Below, piece after piece: positions 2,463-50,151 of a stretch of 64,000 nucleotides of DNA. The first letter of the stretch is position 1. Every line of letters starts with the position of its first letter. A model generated the notes under the pieces. That model searched no databases, was not told the DNA's origin, and saw only the letters and a list, made by a program, of their open reading frames with translations. This DNA is from a virus. The translations under genes were made by a program, and so were the position numbers. Location: positions 64,001 to 128,000 of IMG/VR virus record IMGVR_UViG_3300021420_000016; one strand, 5' to 3'.

Positions 2463-3983
2463 ATGCCGACCGAGATGCGACTAGCCCAGCGGGCGTTCCG
2501 GTTCGCCCTCGACCCCACCCCCCGGCAAGCCCGCATGTTCGCCTCCCATGCTGGCGGCGCCCGGTTCGCCTACAACTGGGGTAACGCGCAGATCATCGCC
2601 GCACTGGACGCCCGGCAAGCCGAGAAAGATGCAGGTGCCGAGCCGACGGTGAAGACGCCGTCCCATTTTGACCTGTGCAAGGCGTGGACGGCGTGGAAGA
2701 ACGAGCACGCCGCCGATCCCGAGCCCGCCGACGGTGAGCGGCGCACGAACACCGCCTGGGTCGCGGAGAACTTCGTCGGCACCTACCAGGCCGCGCTCCG
2801 GGACGCCGCGAAGGCGTGGTCGGACTTCTTCGCCTCCCGCTCAGGGAAGCGAAAGGGGCGCCGTCTCGGCCGACCCCGGTTCAAGAAGAAGGGCAAGTCC
2901 CGGGACTCGTTCCAGGTGCACGGCGGGACGCTGCGCATGGAGGACGCCGTGCACGTGACGCTGCCGAAGATCGGCACGATCACGGTGATGTCGGACGATT
3001 CCCTGCACCCGGCGATGCGGCGCAGCCGCGCCCGCGCCACCCACCTCGCGCCGCGGCACATGGGCAACCGGCGGCGCGCCCGGACGCTGTGGCGGGCCCT
3101 CCGGCGCGGCGGGGGCGCCCGGCTGATCCGCGGGACCGTCACGCGCGGCGCCGATGGCCTGTGGTGGCTGTCGCTGACCGCCGAAATCCCCCTGCAGGTG
3201 CGCGCGTCCCCGTCCCGCGCCCAGCAGGAGGGGGGGATGATCGGCGCCGACTTTGGGGTGCGCGAGGTCGCCACGTTCTCCAACGGGGTGACGATCCGCA
3301 ACTCGCGCCACCTGGAAGCCGCCCTGGCCGAGCTGCGGGCCGCGCAGAAGGCCCTGTCCCGGTGTCAGAAGGACTCCATGCGCCGCGAAAAGGCCAAAGC
3401 TCGCATTGGCGTAATCCACGCCGACGTGGCCCGGCTCCGCGAAACCGCCCTGCACCGGGCGACGACCGTCCTGGTCCGCCAGCACGACGTGATCGCAATG
3501 GAAGGCTGGGACGTGCAGCAGGTCATGCGCGGCGGCTCCAAGGACGTCCCCCGGCGGATCCGCCGGGACCGGAACCGGGCCCTGGCTGACACCGGGGTCG
3601 GGATGGCCCGGCAGATGCTTTCGTACAAGGGCCCGCAGATGGGTGCCATCGTGATGGTGACCGATCCGCAGGCCAAGACTGGGCGGACGTGCTCAGTGTG
3701 CAGGACGCCAAGAACCACGGCCCTGCCACCGCATCATGAGATGTTCACCAGCGATCAGTGCGGTCACGTCCTAGACCGGCGCCTCAACACGGCGCAGGCC
3801 CTCGCGGGCTGGGCCGCACAGGAGCTATCCAAGCGCGGGCCGGCGCCTGCCGGCCCGTCACGGCCTCGTGGAGGGAACGTAAGGCCTGCCGCTGACCGCA
3901 AGGTTGGCGGTGGGCGGTCCCCGGTGAAGCGAGCAGCCAGCACCCGGCTTGGCCGGGGTGAGCCTGGCACTCCCGGCGGGTAA
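2463..3983 (+). CDS. tnpB: TnpB/Cas12-like RNA-guided protein, predicted nuclease-inactive
   Basis: N-terminal AFRFALDPTPRQ...GARFAYNW; RuvC-I GADFG (D263); RuvC-II AMEGW (E347); CSVC knuckle; RuvC-III DRRLN instead of DRDxN; RBS AAGGAGG. Confidence 0.9.
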   Translation: MPTEMRLAQRAFRFALDPTPRQARMFASHAGGARFAYNWGNAQIIAALDARQAEKDAGAEPTVKTPSHFDLCKAWTAWKNEHAADPEPADGERRTNTAWVAENFVGTYQAALRDAAKAWSDFFASRSGKRKGRRLGRPRFKKKGKSRDSFQVHGGTLRMEDAVHVTLPKIGTITVMSDDSLHPAMRRSRARATHLAPRHMGNRRRARTLWRALRRGGGARLIRGTVTRGADGLWWLSLTAEIPLQVRASPSRAQQEGGMIGADFGVREVATFSNGVTIRNSRHLEAALAELRAAQKALSRCQKDSMRREKAKARIGVIHADVARLRETALHRATTVLVRQHDVIAMEGWDVQQVMRGGSKDVPRRIRRDRNRALADTGVGMARQMLSYKGPQMGAIVMVTDPQAKTGRTCSVCRTPRTTALPPHHEMFTSDQCGHVLDRRLNTAQALAGWAAQELSKRGPAPAGPSRPRGGNVRPAADRKVGGGRSPVKRAASTRLGRGEPGTPGG

Positions 3984-4020
3984 CTGCTGGGCGTCCCCAC
4001 ACTGCCCGGATCGGGCTGCC
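3850..4020 (+). ncRNA. candidate omega-RNA-derived scaffold / tracrRNA
   Basis: CGTGGAG...GTAAG...hairpin...GTGAAGCG...hairpins overlapping the tnpB 3' end, as in actinobacterial tnpB right ends; repeat-complementary segment at 3992-4016. Confidence 0.55.
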
Positions 4021-4064
4021 TAACTCAATAGCGGAATCGCTTACAAACGTACAGGTCAAGAAGT
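4021..4064 (+). promoter_or_regulatory. CRISPR leader (actinobacterial type I-E style)
   Basis: AT-richer segment ending AAACGTACAGGTCAAGAAGT directly before repeat 1. Confidence 0.7.
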
Positions 4065-4527
4065 GTCCGGTCCGCGAGCGCGGGGGCGACGGGTCTTCAG
4101 CGGGAAGGTGCAGCTCTGCGAGCAGGTCCGGTCCGCGAGCGCGGGGGCGACGGGTGTGGGTACTCTGCGCGGGTTCAGCACAGGTTGTCCGGTTCGCGAG
4201 CGCGGGGGCGACGGGATTACGGTGCGATGGAAGCCGAAACCTTCAACGTCCGGTCCGCGAGCGCGGGGGCGACGGGTGCCCTCTCGCGACAGAGGTCCTC
4301 AGCACAGCGCGTCCGGTCCGCGAGCGCGGGGGCGACGGGGGAGTGCACCCGGAATGGCCCGCGCCAAGCGCGTCCGGTCCGCGAGCGCGGGGGCGACGGG
4401 GCGCCGAACTGCGAATTCGGTAGGGGCGTGTGGTCCGGTCCGCGAGCACGGGGGGGGCGACGGTGCCTCAGTCCAGCGCCGCCGCCGATGAAGCGGGCGG
4501 TCCGGTCCGCGGGCGCGGGGGATCCGG
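4065..4527 (+). CRISPR. CRISPR array, 8 repeats / 7 spacers, type I-E-like repeat GTCCGGTCCGCGAGCGCGGGGGCGACGG(G)
   Basis: Repeats start at 4065, 4126, 4187, 4248, 4311, 4372, 4433, 4500; mostly 61-nt period; distal repeats degenerate. Confidence 0.97.
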
Positions 4528-4571
4528 AACTTCTTGCCGATCCGGAACTTCATGTGGTTGGGTTGGTAGCC

Positions 4572-4901
4572 ATGCGCGGTGCGGAGCCGACCAAGCCGAT
4601 TGAATTAGCGCGGGTGGCCGACCAGCTCACCTTTCTCTACGTCGAGCACGCCCGGGTGGACCGCGACGTCAATGCCGTGACCGTTCAGCAGGTCTCCGGG
4701 ATCGCTCATGTTCCGGTGGCCACCCTCGCTGCGTTACTACTGGGCCCGGGAACCCGGATCACCCACGCCGCGATCACGCTGCTTGCCGGAAGCGGATGTA
4801 GCGTGCTGTGGGCCGGCGAACAAGGCGTGCGCCTTTATGCGGGTGCGGCTCGGCGTCGTCAAGGGCGGCGGGTCGGCGCTGATGGTGATCGCCGACCATG
4901 A
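4572..4901 (+). pseudogene. cas1: type I-E cas1, 5' third only
   Basis: LTFLYVEHARVDRD.NAVT...VPVATLAALLLGPGTRITHAA...LWAGEQGVRLYA; homology stops near 4845, so the catalytic domain is absent. Confidence 0.9.
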
Positions 4902-5063: not shown

Positions 5064-5348
5064 ATGAGTAGCAGATCAGCAGGCCCCAGCGGCGCCTACA
5101 CATCTGGTGATGGCAAGCGGAAATCCTCCATGGGTCACGCCCGTCACGCCTGGACGTGCCCCTGTGGCAAGACCGTCCGGGGCAACGGCGGCCGGGCGTC
5201 TCACCGCCGCGCCTGCGACATCTGGGCTGAGGAAGAACTAGCCCGGCTGAAGCGAATGCTCGCCGATGTTCCAGCCGCACAGTATGAGGTGCGGCGTCAA
5301 TGGGAGGCCCGGCGAGACCACCTGAAGGAAAGGCTTGGCCATGACTGA
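5064..5348 (+). CDS. small putative Zn-binding protein
   Basis: CPCG...HRRAC; overlaps recombinase start. Confidence 0.5.
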   Translation: MSSRSAGPSGAYTSGDGKRKSSMGHARHAWTCPCGKTVRGNGGRASHRRACDIWAEEELARLKRMLADVPAAQYEVRRQWEARRDHLKERLGHD

Positions 5349-6516
5349 GATCGCCCTGCAGGGCCAAGTCGTCCCGGCCGTCACGCAGCCCGGGGATCCC
5401 CGCAGCGAACTCCTCGCCAGGCTCACCGCCGCCTGGCTGACCCGGCAGGAATCCCCTCACACCCGCGTAGCGTACGAGCGCGATCTCCGCGACTGGCTCG
5501 CCTGGTGCGCCAGCCGGGAGGTTCATCCGCTGACCGCACGCATGAGCGACGTGGACGACTGGATCGCCGCACAGCGGGAGACGCCGGGCCGGCGCGGAGG
5601 CTCGGCTCCCAAGTACCCCGACGAGGCCATAGCTGCCGCATACGTGCGCTGGAAGGCCGGTAAAGCCCCCGGCGGCGTGCCTGTCTCCAAGGCCGCGCTG
5701 GCCCGGGAAATTGGCATGTTCCCCAATGCGCTCGCCAGCAGGTTCAGGAAACTGGAGCGCGACCTCACCGCAGGGACTCCGCAGGGCGCGTCCAAGCGGA
5801 GCATCGCCCGGCGCGTTTACGCCGTCCGGTCCTGGTACAAGTACCTGATCCGGAACACCCGAAGCGACCCGGTGCCGCTCATCGCCTACAATCCGGCGGA
5901 CACCGACGCCACTCCCAAGGTGAAGAAAGGCGACTCCCCCACCCGTGCGCTCAGCCGGGCCGAGGCCGACCGGCTCATCGCGGTCGCCGACGCCGACAGT
6001 CCCCGGTCCTCGGCGATCATCCGCCTCATGCTCACCAACGCTGACCGCCGCAGTTCTGTCGTGGCCATCGACATCCCCGACCTCGGCTGGGACCAGGGTC
6101 ACCGGACCGTTACCAGGCGCATCAAGGAAGGCCGGACAGTCCGTGACCCCATCCCCCCGCCGACCGCTCGCGCCATTGACGCCTACCTTGACTGGCGGGG
6201 CAACCCGCAAGACGGTCCATTGTTCGTCGCCAGTACCGGGAATCGGCTTAGTGACCAGCATCTGTACGACCTCGTGCCCCGGCTGGCCCGGGAAGCAGAT
6301 ATCCCGGACCCGGAAGAGGTCACCCCACACGGTCTGCGCGCCACCGCCATCACCGAAACGATCGTCGCCACCGGCGACATGTCCCTAGCCCAGGATCTCG
6401 CCCACCATCAGCACATGGACACCACGATGATCTACAACAAAGTCCGGGGGGATCTCGACCGCCACGCAGCGTATGTCCTCGCCACGCGGTACGGCGCCAA
6501 AGACGCGAGCGGCTAA
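5341..6516 (+). CDS. tyrosine recombinase (Xer/integrase family) with inserted HTH-like segment
   Basis: SPHTRVAYERDL N-domain; NADRRS; TPHGLRATAIT; LAHH..MDTTMIY. Confidence 0.9.
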   Translation: MTEIALQGQVVPAVTQPGDPRSELLARLTAAWLTRQESPHTRVAYERDLRDWLAWCASREVHPLTARMSDVDDWIAAQRETPGRRGGSAPKYPDEAIAAAYVRWKAGKAPGGVPVSKAALAREIGMFPNALASRFRKLERDLTAGTPQGASKRSIARRVYAVRSWYKYLIRNTRSDPVPLIAYNPADTDATPKVKKGDSPTRALSRAEADRLIAVADADSPRSSAIIRLMLTNADRRSSVVAIDIPDLGWDQGHRTVTRRIKEGRTVRDPIPPPTARAIDAYLDWRGNPQDGPLFVASTGNRLSDQHLYDLVPRLAREADIPDPEEVTPHGLRATAITETIVATGDMSLAQDLAHHQHMDTTMIYNKVRGDLDRHAAYVLATRYGAKDASG

Positions 6517-49605: not shown

Positions 49606-50151
49606 TTAACAGGTGGCAGTCAGGGCGTAGTGGTAATGGCTGGCCGCCCACGGGGAGTCCTCGATCGCGTTGGCGACCGCCTGGGCGTTGTTTCCGGCGC
49701 GCAAGGCGGCGAGGATGCCGCCGTAGCTGCGCACCGTCTGGACGGTGTAGCGGAGGCCGATCCGGGCAGTGGGGAACGCCCACGCGCCGGTCGCGTTGTA
49801 ACCGGGCCATCCGGCACCGGGGCCGGGGTTCAGGTTGAGCGGGTTGTTCTCGGCCTGGTTGCCGAACCCGCCACCTTCGGCGGTTTCCCAGGCGATCACC
49901 GCGTTGCGGTCGCACCGGGTGAGCGGTTCGGGGATGTCTTGCAGGAACGCCCGGGCCCACGAGGCGCGGGTCGACAGGTTCCCCGGGTTCCCCGCGGAGG
50001 CTTGTACGGAGGTGAGCATGCCGTTCTGGACATGGTGGCCGTGGTGGTGGCCGTGGGTTTGGCTCAGGCCAGCGAGGCTGAGGCCTACGGTCACCGCAGC
50101 GGCGGCCCAAGCCCCCGTGTGACTCTTCTGGACGTAACGGCGGCGGCTCAT
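49606..50151 (-). CDS. secreted lysozyme-like cell-wall hydrolase
   Basis: signal peptide; AWETAEGG..NNPLN; SPWAASHY. Confidence 0.6.
   Translation of the reverse strand: MSRRRYVQKSHTGAWAAAAVTVGLSLAGLSQTHGHHHGHHVQNGMLTSVQASAGNPGNLSTRASWARAFLQDIPEPLTRCDRNAVIAWETAEGGGFGNQAENNPLNLNPGPGAGWPGYNATGAWAFPTARIGLRYTVQTVRSYGGILAALRAGNNAQAVANAIEDSPWAASHYHYALTATC

Follow-up and report, generated by a model that had tools for sequence, protein, structure and literature searches.

Positions 3836-3998, approximately, of the DNA analysed here probably encode the trans-activating CRISPR RNA (tracrRNA) of a Cas12n-like (type V-U4/V-N-like) CRISPR system in a 154-kb soil virus. The window, by which we mean the whole 64,000-nt stretch, covers bases 64001-128000 of the 154-kb IMG/VR virus record IMGVR_UViG_3300021420_000016 (rated 98% complete; 68% G+C). 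The open reading frame (ORF) of the effector, on the plus strand, is followed by the CRISPR array, a Cas1e fragment and then a tyrosine integrase, and both the effector and the array occur only once in the 154-kb record. The RNA scaffold at the end of the effector gene forms a helix with the CRISPR repeat, co-evolves with this repeat and is linked to the array and to type I-E Cas1-Cas2.

In the mechanism that we propose, the tracrRNA would be embedded in the last part of the effector gene and fold into the stems S1, S2, P1 and P2, and CGUCCCC (3992-3998) would pair with bases 18-24 of each repeat to give a short helix stacked on P2. The last five bases of the repeat (ACGGG) would serve as the junction to the spacer, and scaffold plus spacer, although on separate molecules, would jointly adopt the form of a TnpB omega-RNA. 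Both RNAs would be made and loaded on the effector, and the protein would read the ACGG junction, perhaps together with a small pseudoknot to 3836-3837, by analogy with RdCas12n. The spacers would have been acquired by Cas1e-Cas2e, which is decayed in the window, and at the target the complex might bind in place of cutting.

A protein search yielded 223 relatives of the effector at E <= 1e-20, and the surrounding DNA was retrieved for part of them; a single-protein scan of species genomes gave no close relative. The comparisons cover 14 loci, namely the window, L004, L005, L007, L008, L093, L094, L096, L171 and L173-L177. Their alignment A2 begins with the Rfam motif and extends through the first repeat, and paired cells were counted in it. 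RNAalifold was run on a longer alignment of the 14 loci and was given no hint of the proposed pairings. One additional contig, P0006, contributed gene calls only and stands outside the 14-locus alignment.

The repeat:anti-repeat helix

The initial annotation, made from the letters of the window, had drawn two pairings between the DNA behind the effector stop codon and the repeat, one of CGTCCCC (3992-3998) with GGGGGCG and the other of CGGATCGGGC (4007-4016) with the first ten repeat bases. The strings and coordinates were correct, and the first pairing was borne out by the comparison of loci. When 3992-3998 was set against repeat nt 18-24, 93.9% of the cells were paired and 0/500 shuffles were as good; the 14 loci are mutually related, so that shuffle counts overstate independence and are not probabilities. 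Changes on both sides, i.e. compensatory changes, were found in five of the seven pairs. Controls in slid registers reached 44-67% paired cells with almost no covariation. The same seven pairs came out of RNAalifold unprompted, and the helix was also present in the minimum free energy (MFE) structures of the cofold. Moreover, cognate 7-mers gave -11.1 kcal/mol vs -8.4 kcal/mol for non-cognate ones, the cognate combination being better in 5000/5000 permutations.

The anti-repeat and the repeat read CGUCCCC/GGGGGCG in the window, CGUCCCC/GGGGACG in L004, UGCCCCC/GGGGGCA in L007, CACCCCC/GGGGGUG in L171, UACCCCC/GGGGGUA in L175, CGUCCCU/AGGGACG in L093, CGUCCAC/GUGGACG in L177, CGUCCG/CGGACG in L173 and, two bases shorter on either strand, CGUCC/GGGCG in L096. 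The anti-repeat begins right after the last pair of P2, and the helix is predicted to stack directly on this hairpin. As in Cas12n, the terminal repeat:anti-repeat stem is followed by a few unpaired bases, here ACGGG.

Energies calculated from the window were mixed. Cofolding of 3850-4020 with a repeat, which the initial annotation had named as a check, gave a result no better than that of shuffles of the same stretch (p about 0.5), whereas the 36-nt segment 3985-4020 outperformed about 97-98% of its dinucleotide shuffles, and 98.8% of all 36-nt windows of the genome, in pairing with the repeat. This implies that single-sequence thermodynamics is unable to decide on the pairing.

Several observations weigh against the assignment as a tracrRNA, in addition to the relatedness of the loci. 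The conserved helix comprises 7 bp, and 5-6 bp in L008, L096, L173 and L174, a small number for an RNA duplex on its own. Because it shares nt 18-21 with the 3' arm of the palindrome of the repeat itself, the two structures compete, and cofolding of a long tracrRNA (from 3846 onwards) favours other GC-rich pairings. The effector is assigned as Cas12n-like from profile and PDB matches, and its non-canonical RuvC-III motif means that its function may differ from Cas12n-like cleavage. A 151-nt contig from the soil RNA library X8 equals 3881-4031; it may stem from DNA carry-over, and its ends are uninformative. Two further RNA-library contigs, one in X11 over 4372-4519 and one in X7 over 4450-4600, likewise lack strand and ends. 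With DNA carry-over possible, such contigs are no evidence of transcription.

The second pairing fared differently. It can be drawn in the window, but across the loci 60.7% of the cells of 4007-4016 against repeat nt 1-10 were paired vs a shuffle mean of 62.0%, 435/500 shuffles were as good, and covariation was absent. Thus, of the covariation between repeat and anti-repeat that the initial annotation had proposed to look for in homologous loci, that of 3992-3998 was found and that of 4007-4016 was not. An alternative register, 4012-4018 against repeat nt 4-10, was rejected as well (69% vs a shuffle mean of 71%, without covariation). In a free-register test of cognate against non-cognate energies the second element gave a marginal result (p 0.04-0.07) with scattered cognate ranks.

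These data bear on the proposal that 3992-3998 and 4007-4016 together are a degenerate inverted copy of the repeat which pairs with both repeat ends and has been caught while arising. Both elements are indeed colinear with an inverted repeat copy in the window, the 25-nt segment 3992-4016 surpasses 99.6% of shuffles in its pairing with the repeat, and the cofold MFE structure of a tracrRNA extended to 4020 with the full repeat uses both elements. However, the second element does not co-vary with the repeat, and the repeat of the window itself ranks only 5th of 14 as its partner. L004 and L094 have identical repeats and differ in the bases of this arm, and L096 and L173 lack the element together with its hairpin and keep long arrays. 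The system is moreover old and widespread and not nascent, as the initial annotation had supposed: the split is fixed in a clade of no fewer than 14 loci whose effectors are 43-85% identical, and a working-looking Cas1e-Cas2e is present in several of these loci. We therefore regard the inverted-copy proposal as very improbable.

Instead of pairing with the repeat, the second element takes part in a local hairpin, GCCCG-GAU-CGGGC, which was 89.6% paired in cis across the loci vs 48-63% when slid by one column. Its fifth pair, inspected by eye, changes from G-C to A-U in L007 and to U-A in L094. As 4002-4013 (CTGCCCGGATCG) is a match to the 5' arm of the stem that the transposon relatives L110 and L106 form in cis, the hairpin probably represents a truncated remnant of such a stem in the ancestor.

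The scaffold RNA and the effector

The Rfam family RF03015 (Transposase-2 RNA), a motif known at the 3' ends of IS605-type orfB/tnpB genes, matched 3926-3995 with 45.8 bits (gathering score 42.7; E 3e-7). The match spans two hairpins, P1 (3936-3968) and P2 (3972-3991), so that an omega-RNA motif lies over the 3' end of the gene as it does in TnpB transposons. P1a, P1b and P2 were 97-100% paired in the 14 loci and showed covariation, and the RNAalifold consensus contained 59 pairs, 30 of them compensatory. The resemblance of the hairpins within the protein tail to tnpB right-end RNA, noticed already by the initial annotation, is borne out by these results. The predicted scaffold overlaps effector codons from about 459 to 506, which would correspond to the in-ORF tracrRNA of Cas12n, and the C-terminal tail is overprinted from about residue 455.

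A 33-nt insertion in the P1 loop of L008 (L008:4203-4235; A2 columns 27-59) leaves the stem intact and is unique to this locus; it indicates that the P1 loop tolerates expansion. We also considered a pseudoknot between the 3' end of the repeat and the 5' region of the tracrRNA, for which CCCGU (3854-3858) appeared as a candidate in the cofold and CG (3836-3837) in RNAalifold. In the latter contact, repeat nt 26-27 would form 2 bp with 3836-3837, which adjoin S1. As neither side varies, the contact is beyond the reach of covariation; by analogy with RdCas12n such a pseudoknot may nevertheless form.

The effector carries the Pfam domains OrfB_IS605, HTH_OrfB_IS605 and a Cas12f1-like TNB. It is homologous to Cas12n over its full length, matching the PADLOC profile Cas12u4 (Cas12n) with E 7.5e-85 (residues 5-459; model 22-440 of 488). 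Its best solved relative is 9J09 (E 9.4e-36), the structure of RdCas12n (PMC12216341), with ISDra2 TnpB behind at 1.8e-22. The match to LaTranC (structure 9JFQ) was weak (E 0.0028), and the NCBIfam model guided_TnpB was matched with 171 bits (cut-off 100 bits). Mobility as a transposon was not indicated, as there is one copy and the neighbouring ORFs contain no transposase domains; the DNA downstream of the effector is conserved between loci, unlike transposon flanks.

The RuvC-III motif of the effector, DRRLNTA (window 3774-3794, residues about 438-444), aligned to DRDLNAA of RdCas12n, and the RuvC D-E-D triad that is intact in Cas12n is altered here, the RuvC-III aspartate being replaced. 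This motif was compared in L181, L091, L131, L004, L096 and L177 on the one hand and in L115, L118 and L110 on the other. The form (D/P)RR(L/V)NTA was found in every CRISPR-linked locus and also in L181, a cis-form locus without an array, whereas the transposon-type relatives (L115, L118 and L110) retain DRDLNAA. The presence of the change in L181 suggests that it tracks immobilisation and not the RNA split as such. Because of the replaced aspartate, the effector complex may bind DNA instead of cutting it.

Table 1. Positions of the effector gene, the predicted RNA elements, the array and the adaptation remnant in the window.
Feature	Position	Strand	Remarks
Effector gene	2463..3983	+	506 aa, TnpB/Cas12n-like (V-U4-like); TAA stop 3981-3983
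Predicted tracrRNA (omega-RNA-derived scaffold)	3836..3998	+	Rfam match, RNAalifold and covariation; 5' end approximate
S1 stem	3839-3842/3851-3854	+	RNAalifold consensus, 14 loci
S2 long stem	3865-3869/3929-3933	+	inner helices present
P1 hairpin	3936-3940/3964-3968 (P1a); 3943-3947/3953-3957 (P1b)	+
P2 hairpin	3972-3979/3984-3991	+	GUAA loop contains the TAA stop codon of the effector
Anti-repeat CGTCCCC	3992..3998	+	pairs with repeat nt 18-24 (GGGGGCG; first copy 4082-4088)
Local hairpin GCCCG-GAU-CGGGC	4004..4016	+	arms 4004-4008/4012-4016; includes the proposed second anti-repeat
Leader	4017..4064	+	motif TGCCTAACTCAATAGCGG, then about 30 nt ending CAGGTCAAGAAGT directly before repeat 1
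CRISPR array	4065..4528	+	co-directional with the effector; first repeat 81 nt after the effector stop
Repeat starts	4065, 4126, 4187, 4248, 4311, 4372, 4433 (degenerate), 4500 (truncated)
Cas1e N-terminal fragment (I-E adaptation remnant)	4572..4901	+	NCBIfam TIGR03638 cas1_ECOLI, E 1.6e-27, model 3-88 of 269

The CRISPR array and the type I-E adaptation module

The order of effector, scaffold, leader and array holds in the 14 loci at 43-85% effector identity, with repeats of 28-29 nt. A chance insertion of a TnpB gene beside an array is ruled out by the same linkage in L004 and 12 further loci. L172, L091 and L131 have kept the scaffold with its anti-repeat, but of the array only one or two degenerate repeats, or nothing, are left (L172:4240-4350; L091:4020-4070; L131:3080-3150); L172 has no leader, and repeat-like sequence stands almost directly behind its scaffold owing to the deletion.

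The repeat of the window is 29 nt long and I-E-like (GTCCGGTCCGCGAGCGCGGGGGCGACGGG), and the last two of its eight copies are degenerate. The seven spacers are mostly 32 nt in length, the first five measuring 32-34 nt and the last two, where the repeats decay, 36-38 nt. No spacer matched any of 50,697 phage records. At its 3' end the repeat reads GGGGGCG-ACGGG, directly followed by the spacer. In L171 the first repeat is 34 nt long owing to a 5-nt internal duplication (L171:3378-3411), and the following repeats are 29 nt.

The hairpin of the repeat is weakened, as the initial annotation had stated: read from the sequence, position 6/21 is a G-G mismatch and 7/20 a U-G wobble, and the repeat MFE is -12.0 kcal/mol, reached in a different fold, vs -15.1 kcal/mol for the E. 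coli I-E repeat. Since the helix with the anti-repeat covers nt 18-21, pairing with the tracrRNA and a Cas6e-type hairpin are mutually exclusive, which fits the weakened hairpin.

Across the loci the leader takes the form CTGCCTAACTCAATAG[CT]GG, followed by about 30 nt ending CAGGTCARGAAG and then the array. The motif TGCCTAACTCAATAGCGG (4017-4036) is kept in 12-14 loci and is far better conserved than the adjoining proteins (43-85% identity for the effectors). Judging from its position and conservation, the leader may act as a promoter of the array and/or as an integration signal for Cas1-Cas2; TGCCTAACTCAATAGCGG may alternatively be a relic of an omega-RNA end with a fixed guide. When IMG/VR and 596 Gb of species genomes were scanned for the leader motif, the contig of L004 was the one true match among chance matches; the species genomes held no true occurrence of TGCCTAACTCAATAGCGG, and a host I-E leader was consequently not identified.

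Beyond the Cas1e fragment of the window, full Cas1e was detected in L008 and L173 (344-360 bits; NCBIfam cut-off 215.6) and Cas2e in L008, again by NCBIfam. Pfam called Cas1 and/or Cas2_CT1978 in L173, L174, L176 and the P0006 contig. Altogether, five loci (L008, L173, L174, L176 and the P0006 contig) have Cas1 behind the array, and a Cas2 or Cas2-like ORF is present in four of the five. The traits of type I-E systems, i.e. 29-nt repeats with a partly kept central palindrome and, in several loci, a variable last base, spacers of mostly 32 nt, and Cas1e with Cas2e, are found together, with intact genes in the relatives. A gene for a tyrosine integrase is located only a few kb from the module in the window (5335-6516), L005 (27-1289), L007 (6677-8002) and L172 (6176-6713), which suggests that the effector-array module rides on, or borders, integrative elements or temperate phages.

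In principle, the effector and the array could be independent modules, with a dead or domesticated TnpB standing beside a phage I-E mini-array that the Cascade of the host reads and a 7-bp complementarity devoid of function. Phages with cas-less arrays that use the host machinery are known, the repeats, the 32-nt majority of spacers and Cas1e/Cas2e are I-E in type, and the complementarity is known from sequence alone. However, compensatory changes in 5/7 pairs are unexpected for unrelated neighbours, and the linkage is retained where effector identity has fallen to 43%. In the repeat, the hairpin needed by Cas6e is degraded. No Cse1, Cas7e or Cas6e (PF09481, PF09344, PF08798), and hence no Cascade, was found in the 154-kb record, and none among the called genes of the relatives, although the host may encode one. 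Moreover, the 3' end of the repeat bears the ACGG junction of the omega-RNA. Independence of the two modules thus appears very unlikely.

The likeliest history of the array is that a I-E array was captured together with its integrase and that the end of the scaffold was then tuned to the repeat. The repeat does not look like a direct copy of the scaffold end, as the two have in common only the ACGG junction and the GGGG arm, the rest being I-E-like. The array would thus have arisen by the capture of a I-E array and integrase and not by the duplication of omega-RNA pieces. The protospacer-adjacent motif (PAM) for I-E acquisition in E. coli is AAG. The PAM of Cas12n is AAN (PMC12216341), and the two overlap on the same side of the protospacer, so that such a take-over would be workable.

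Cis and trans forms of the RNA and related systems

Cis, i.e. unsplit, forms of the RNA occur in relatives alongside the split clade. TnpB relatives at 30-35% identity carry a Transposase-2-like motif (detected by nhmmer), in which P2 is followed by a cis hairpin and then by UAACGG. In L115, L118 and L113, which are copies of one element, the sequences are alike up to ...CAGGUAACGG and diverge at the next base, marking the right end of the transposon and the start of the guide. In the bacterial locus L181 (46-58% identity) the cis form is short and reads P2-CACCCCC-ACCC-GGGGAUG-ACGGG; the DNA behind it is unique and contains no array. In the CRISPR repeats, the 3' arm GGGGGCG and the ACGG(G) junction precede the spacer, the ACGG being that of the transposon relatives. 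The last stem is thus a cis structure in the transposon copies, whereas the CRISPR-linked clade forms it in trans, which indicates that the omega-RNA has been split. With the covarying trans helix and the cis forms of the relatives, the initial suggestion of a split into tracrRNA plus CRISPR RNA (crRNA) stands, although with one pairing element only and as a long-established state.

A further alternative is that the omega-RNA still works in cis, with P2, the hairpin 4004-4016 and UGCCUAAC as the scaffold end and the leader (TCAATAGCGG...) as a fixed guide; the protein would then be an RNA-guided regulator (TldR-like) and the array secondary or separate. The segment 4002-4023 resembles the cis stem of the transposon relatives plus UAAC, the next 15-20 nt are unusually conserved across loci, and RuvC-III is altered throughout the clade as in nuclease-dead derivatives of TnpB (bioRxiv 10.1101/2023.11.30.569447). 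The hairpin is, however, absent in L096 and L173, and a cis RNA leaves the covariation between 3992-3998 and the repeat unexplained. A match for the fixed guide was sought by motif scans only, and its sole true match was the contig of L004. We consider a working cis RNA to have very little chance of being the explanation; it is not mutually exclusive with the tracrRNA, and both can hold.

The closest counterpart of the system is Cas12n. Its tracrRNA overlaps the ORF within the disordered C-terminal tail, and in RdCas12n the repeat:anti-repeat stem (stem 5) shares its axis with stem 4, the guide comes after a few unpaired bases, and bases -4 to -2 form a 3-bp pseudoknot with the 5' part of the tracrRNA (PMC12216341; bioRxiv 10.64898/2026.03.27.714800). 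The locus of the window matches this architecture point for point with S1, S2, P1, P2, the stacked 7-bp helix and ACGGG. It also shares the miniature TnpB-like effector (AcCas12n likewise has 506 aa), the downstream array and the three to four stems in front of a repeat:anti-repeat stem coaxial with the preceding one. An in-ORF tracrRNA with an anti-repeat is the already published Cas12n (V-U4/V-N) layout and not a new principle. By sequence match, RdCas12n is only a distant relative of the effector. The differences lie in RuvC-III ((D/P)RR(L/V)NTA vs DRDLNAA), the 29-nt I-E-like repeats with mostly 32-nt spacers, the virus or mobile element as carrier and the conserved anti-repeat of 7 nt. 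In addition, Cas1e-Cas2e adjoins the array in several members, whereas V-U systems have been described as without adaptation genes (PMC10691335).

The omega-RNA (reRNA) of TnpB in IS200/IS605-IS607 elements (RF03015) likewise has the same motif over the 3' end of the gene and ACGG before the guide. In the transposon, however, a cis hairpin makes up the last stem and flanking DNA serves as the guide, whereas in the present system 3' arm, junction and guide are all carried by the repeats and spacers; the effector of the window is single-copy, is not accompanied by TnpA and has conserved flanks. For TranC, a model called 'functional RNA splitting' explains the origin of type V systems by the division of a transposon right-end RNA into tracrRNA and crRNA (as cited in bioRxiv 10.64898/2026.03.27.714800). 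The evolutionary step is the same here, and close relatives include both cis and split forms. The effector studied here matches LaTranC only weakly. The Cas12r-CRISPR systems of Thermus Lalka phages have a TnpB-like effector on a phage, a short array, 29-nt repeats like those of the host I-E system and 32-33-nt spacers, and use of host I-E adaptation has been proposed for them (bioRxiv 10.64898/2026.04.20.719267). Cas12r differs in needing no tracrRNA and in relying on host Cas1-Cas2 in trans (bioRxiv 10.64898/2026.04.20.719267), whereas here a tracrRNA is predicted and relatives encode Cas1e-Cas2e in cis; the two systems also belong to different effector lineages and host phyla.

What is new here is the combination of 29-nt I-E-like repeats and a I-E adaptation module with an altered active site and a natural cis-to-trans series. 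We tentatively propose a natural hybrid, in which a Cas12n-like effector with a remodelled RuvC-III took over a I-E array and Cas1e-Cas2e, the scaffold was retuned to a 7-nt anti-repeat on the 3' arm of the repeat palindrome, and the ACGG end of the repeat became the guide junction. The clade and its cis relatives (L181, L115 and others) would then be a living stepwise series from omega-RNA to tracrRNA plus crRNA, possibly used for DNA binding by soil actinophages or mobile elements. This proposal, taken jointly with the supposition that the hybrid clade is undescribed as such, is plausible and falls somewhat short of probable.

The transition from TnpB to CRISPR-Cas12 is an active question, and a published proposal sees the decisive step in the splitting of the omega-RNA. 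In the loci compared here this step can be followed in the sequence, from the cis hairpin of the transposons over the very short cis form of L181 to the compensating trans helix of the clade. From a practical point of view, a minimal repeat handle of 7 bp plus ACGG would be available for a 506-aa effector, and candidate single-guide RNAs (sgRNAs) can be designed for this clade, whose active site is unusual.

On the minus strand at 49754-49782, a distant ORF contains a near copy of the anti-repeat/hairpin region 3988-4017, GGGCGTTCCCCACTGCCCGGATCGGCC, identical at 27/30 positions (E 8e-4 within the genome); it may reflect chance or a small conversion tract.

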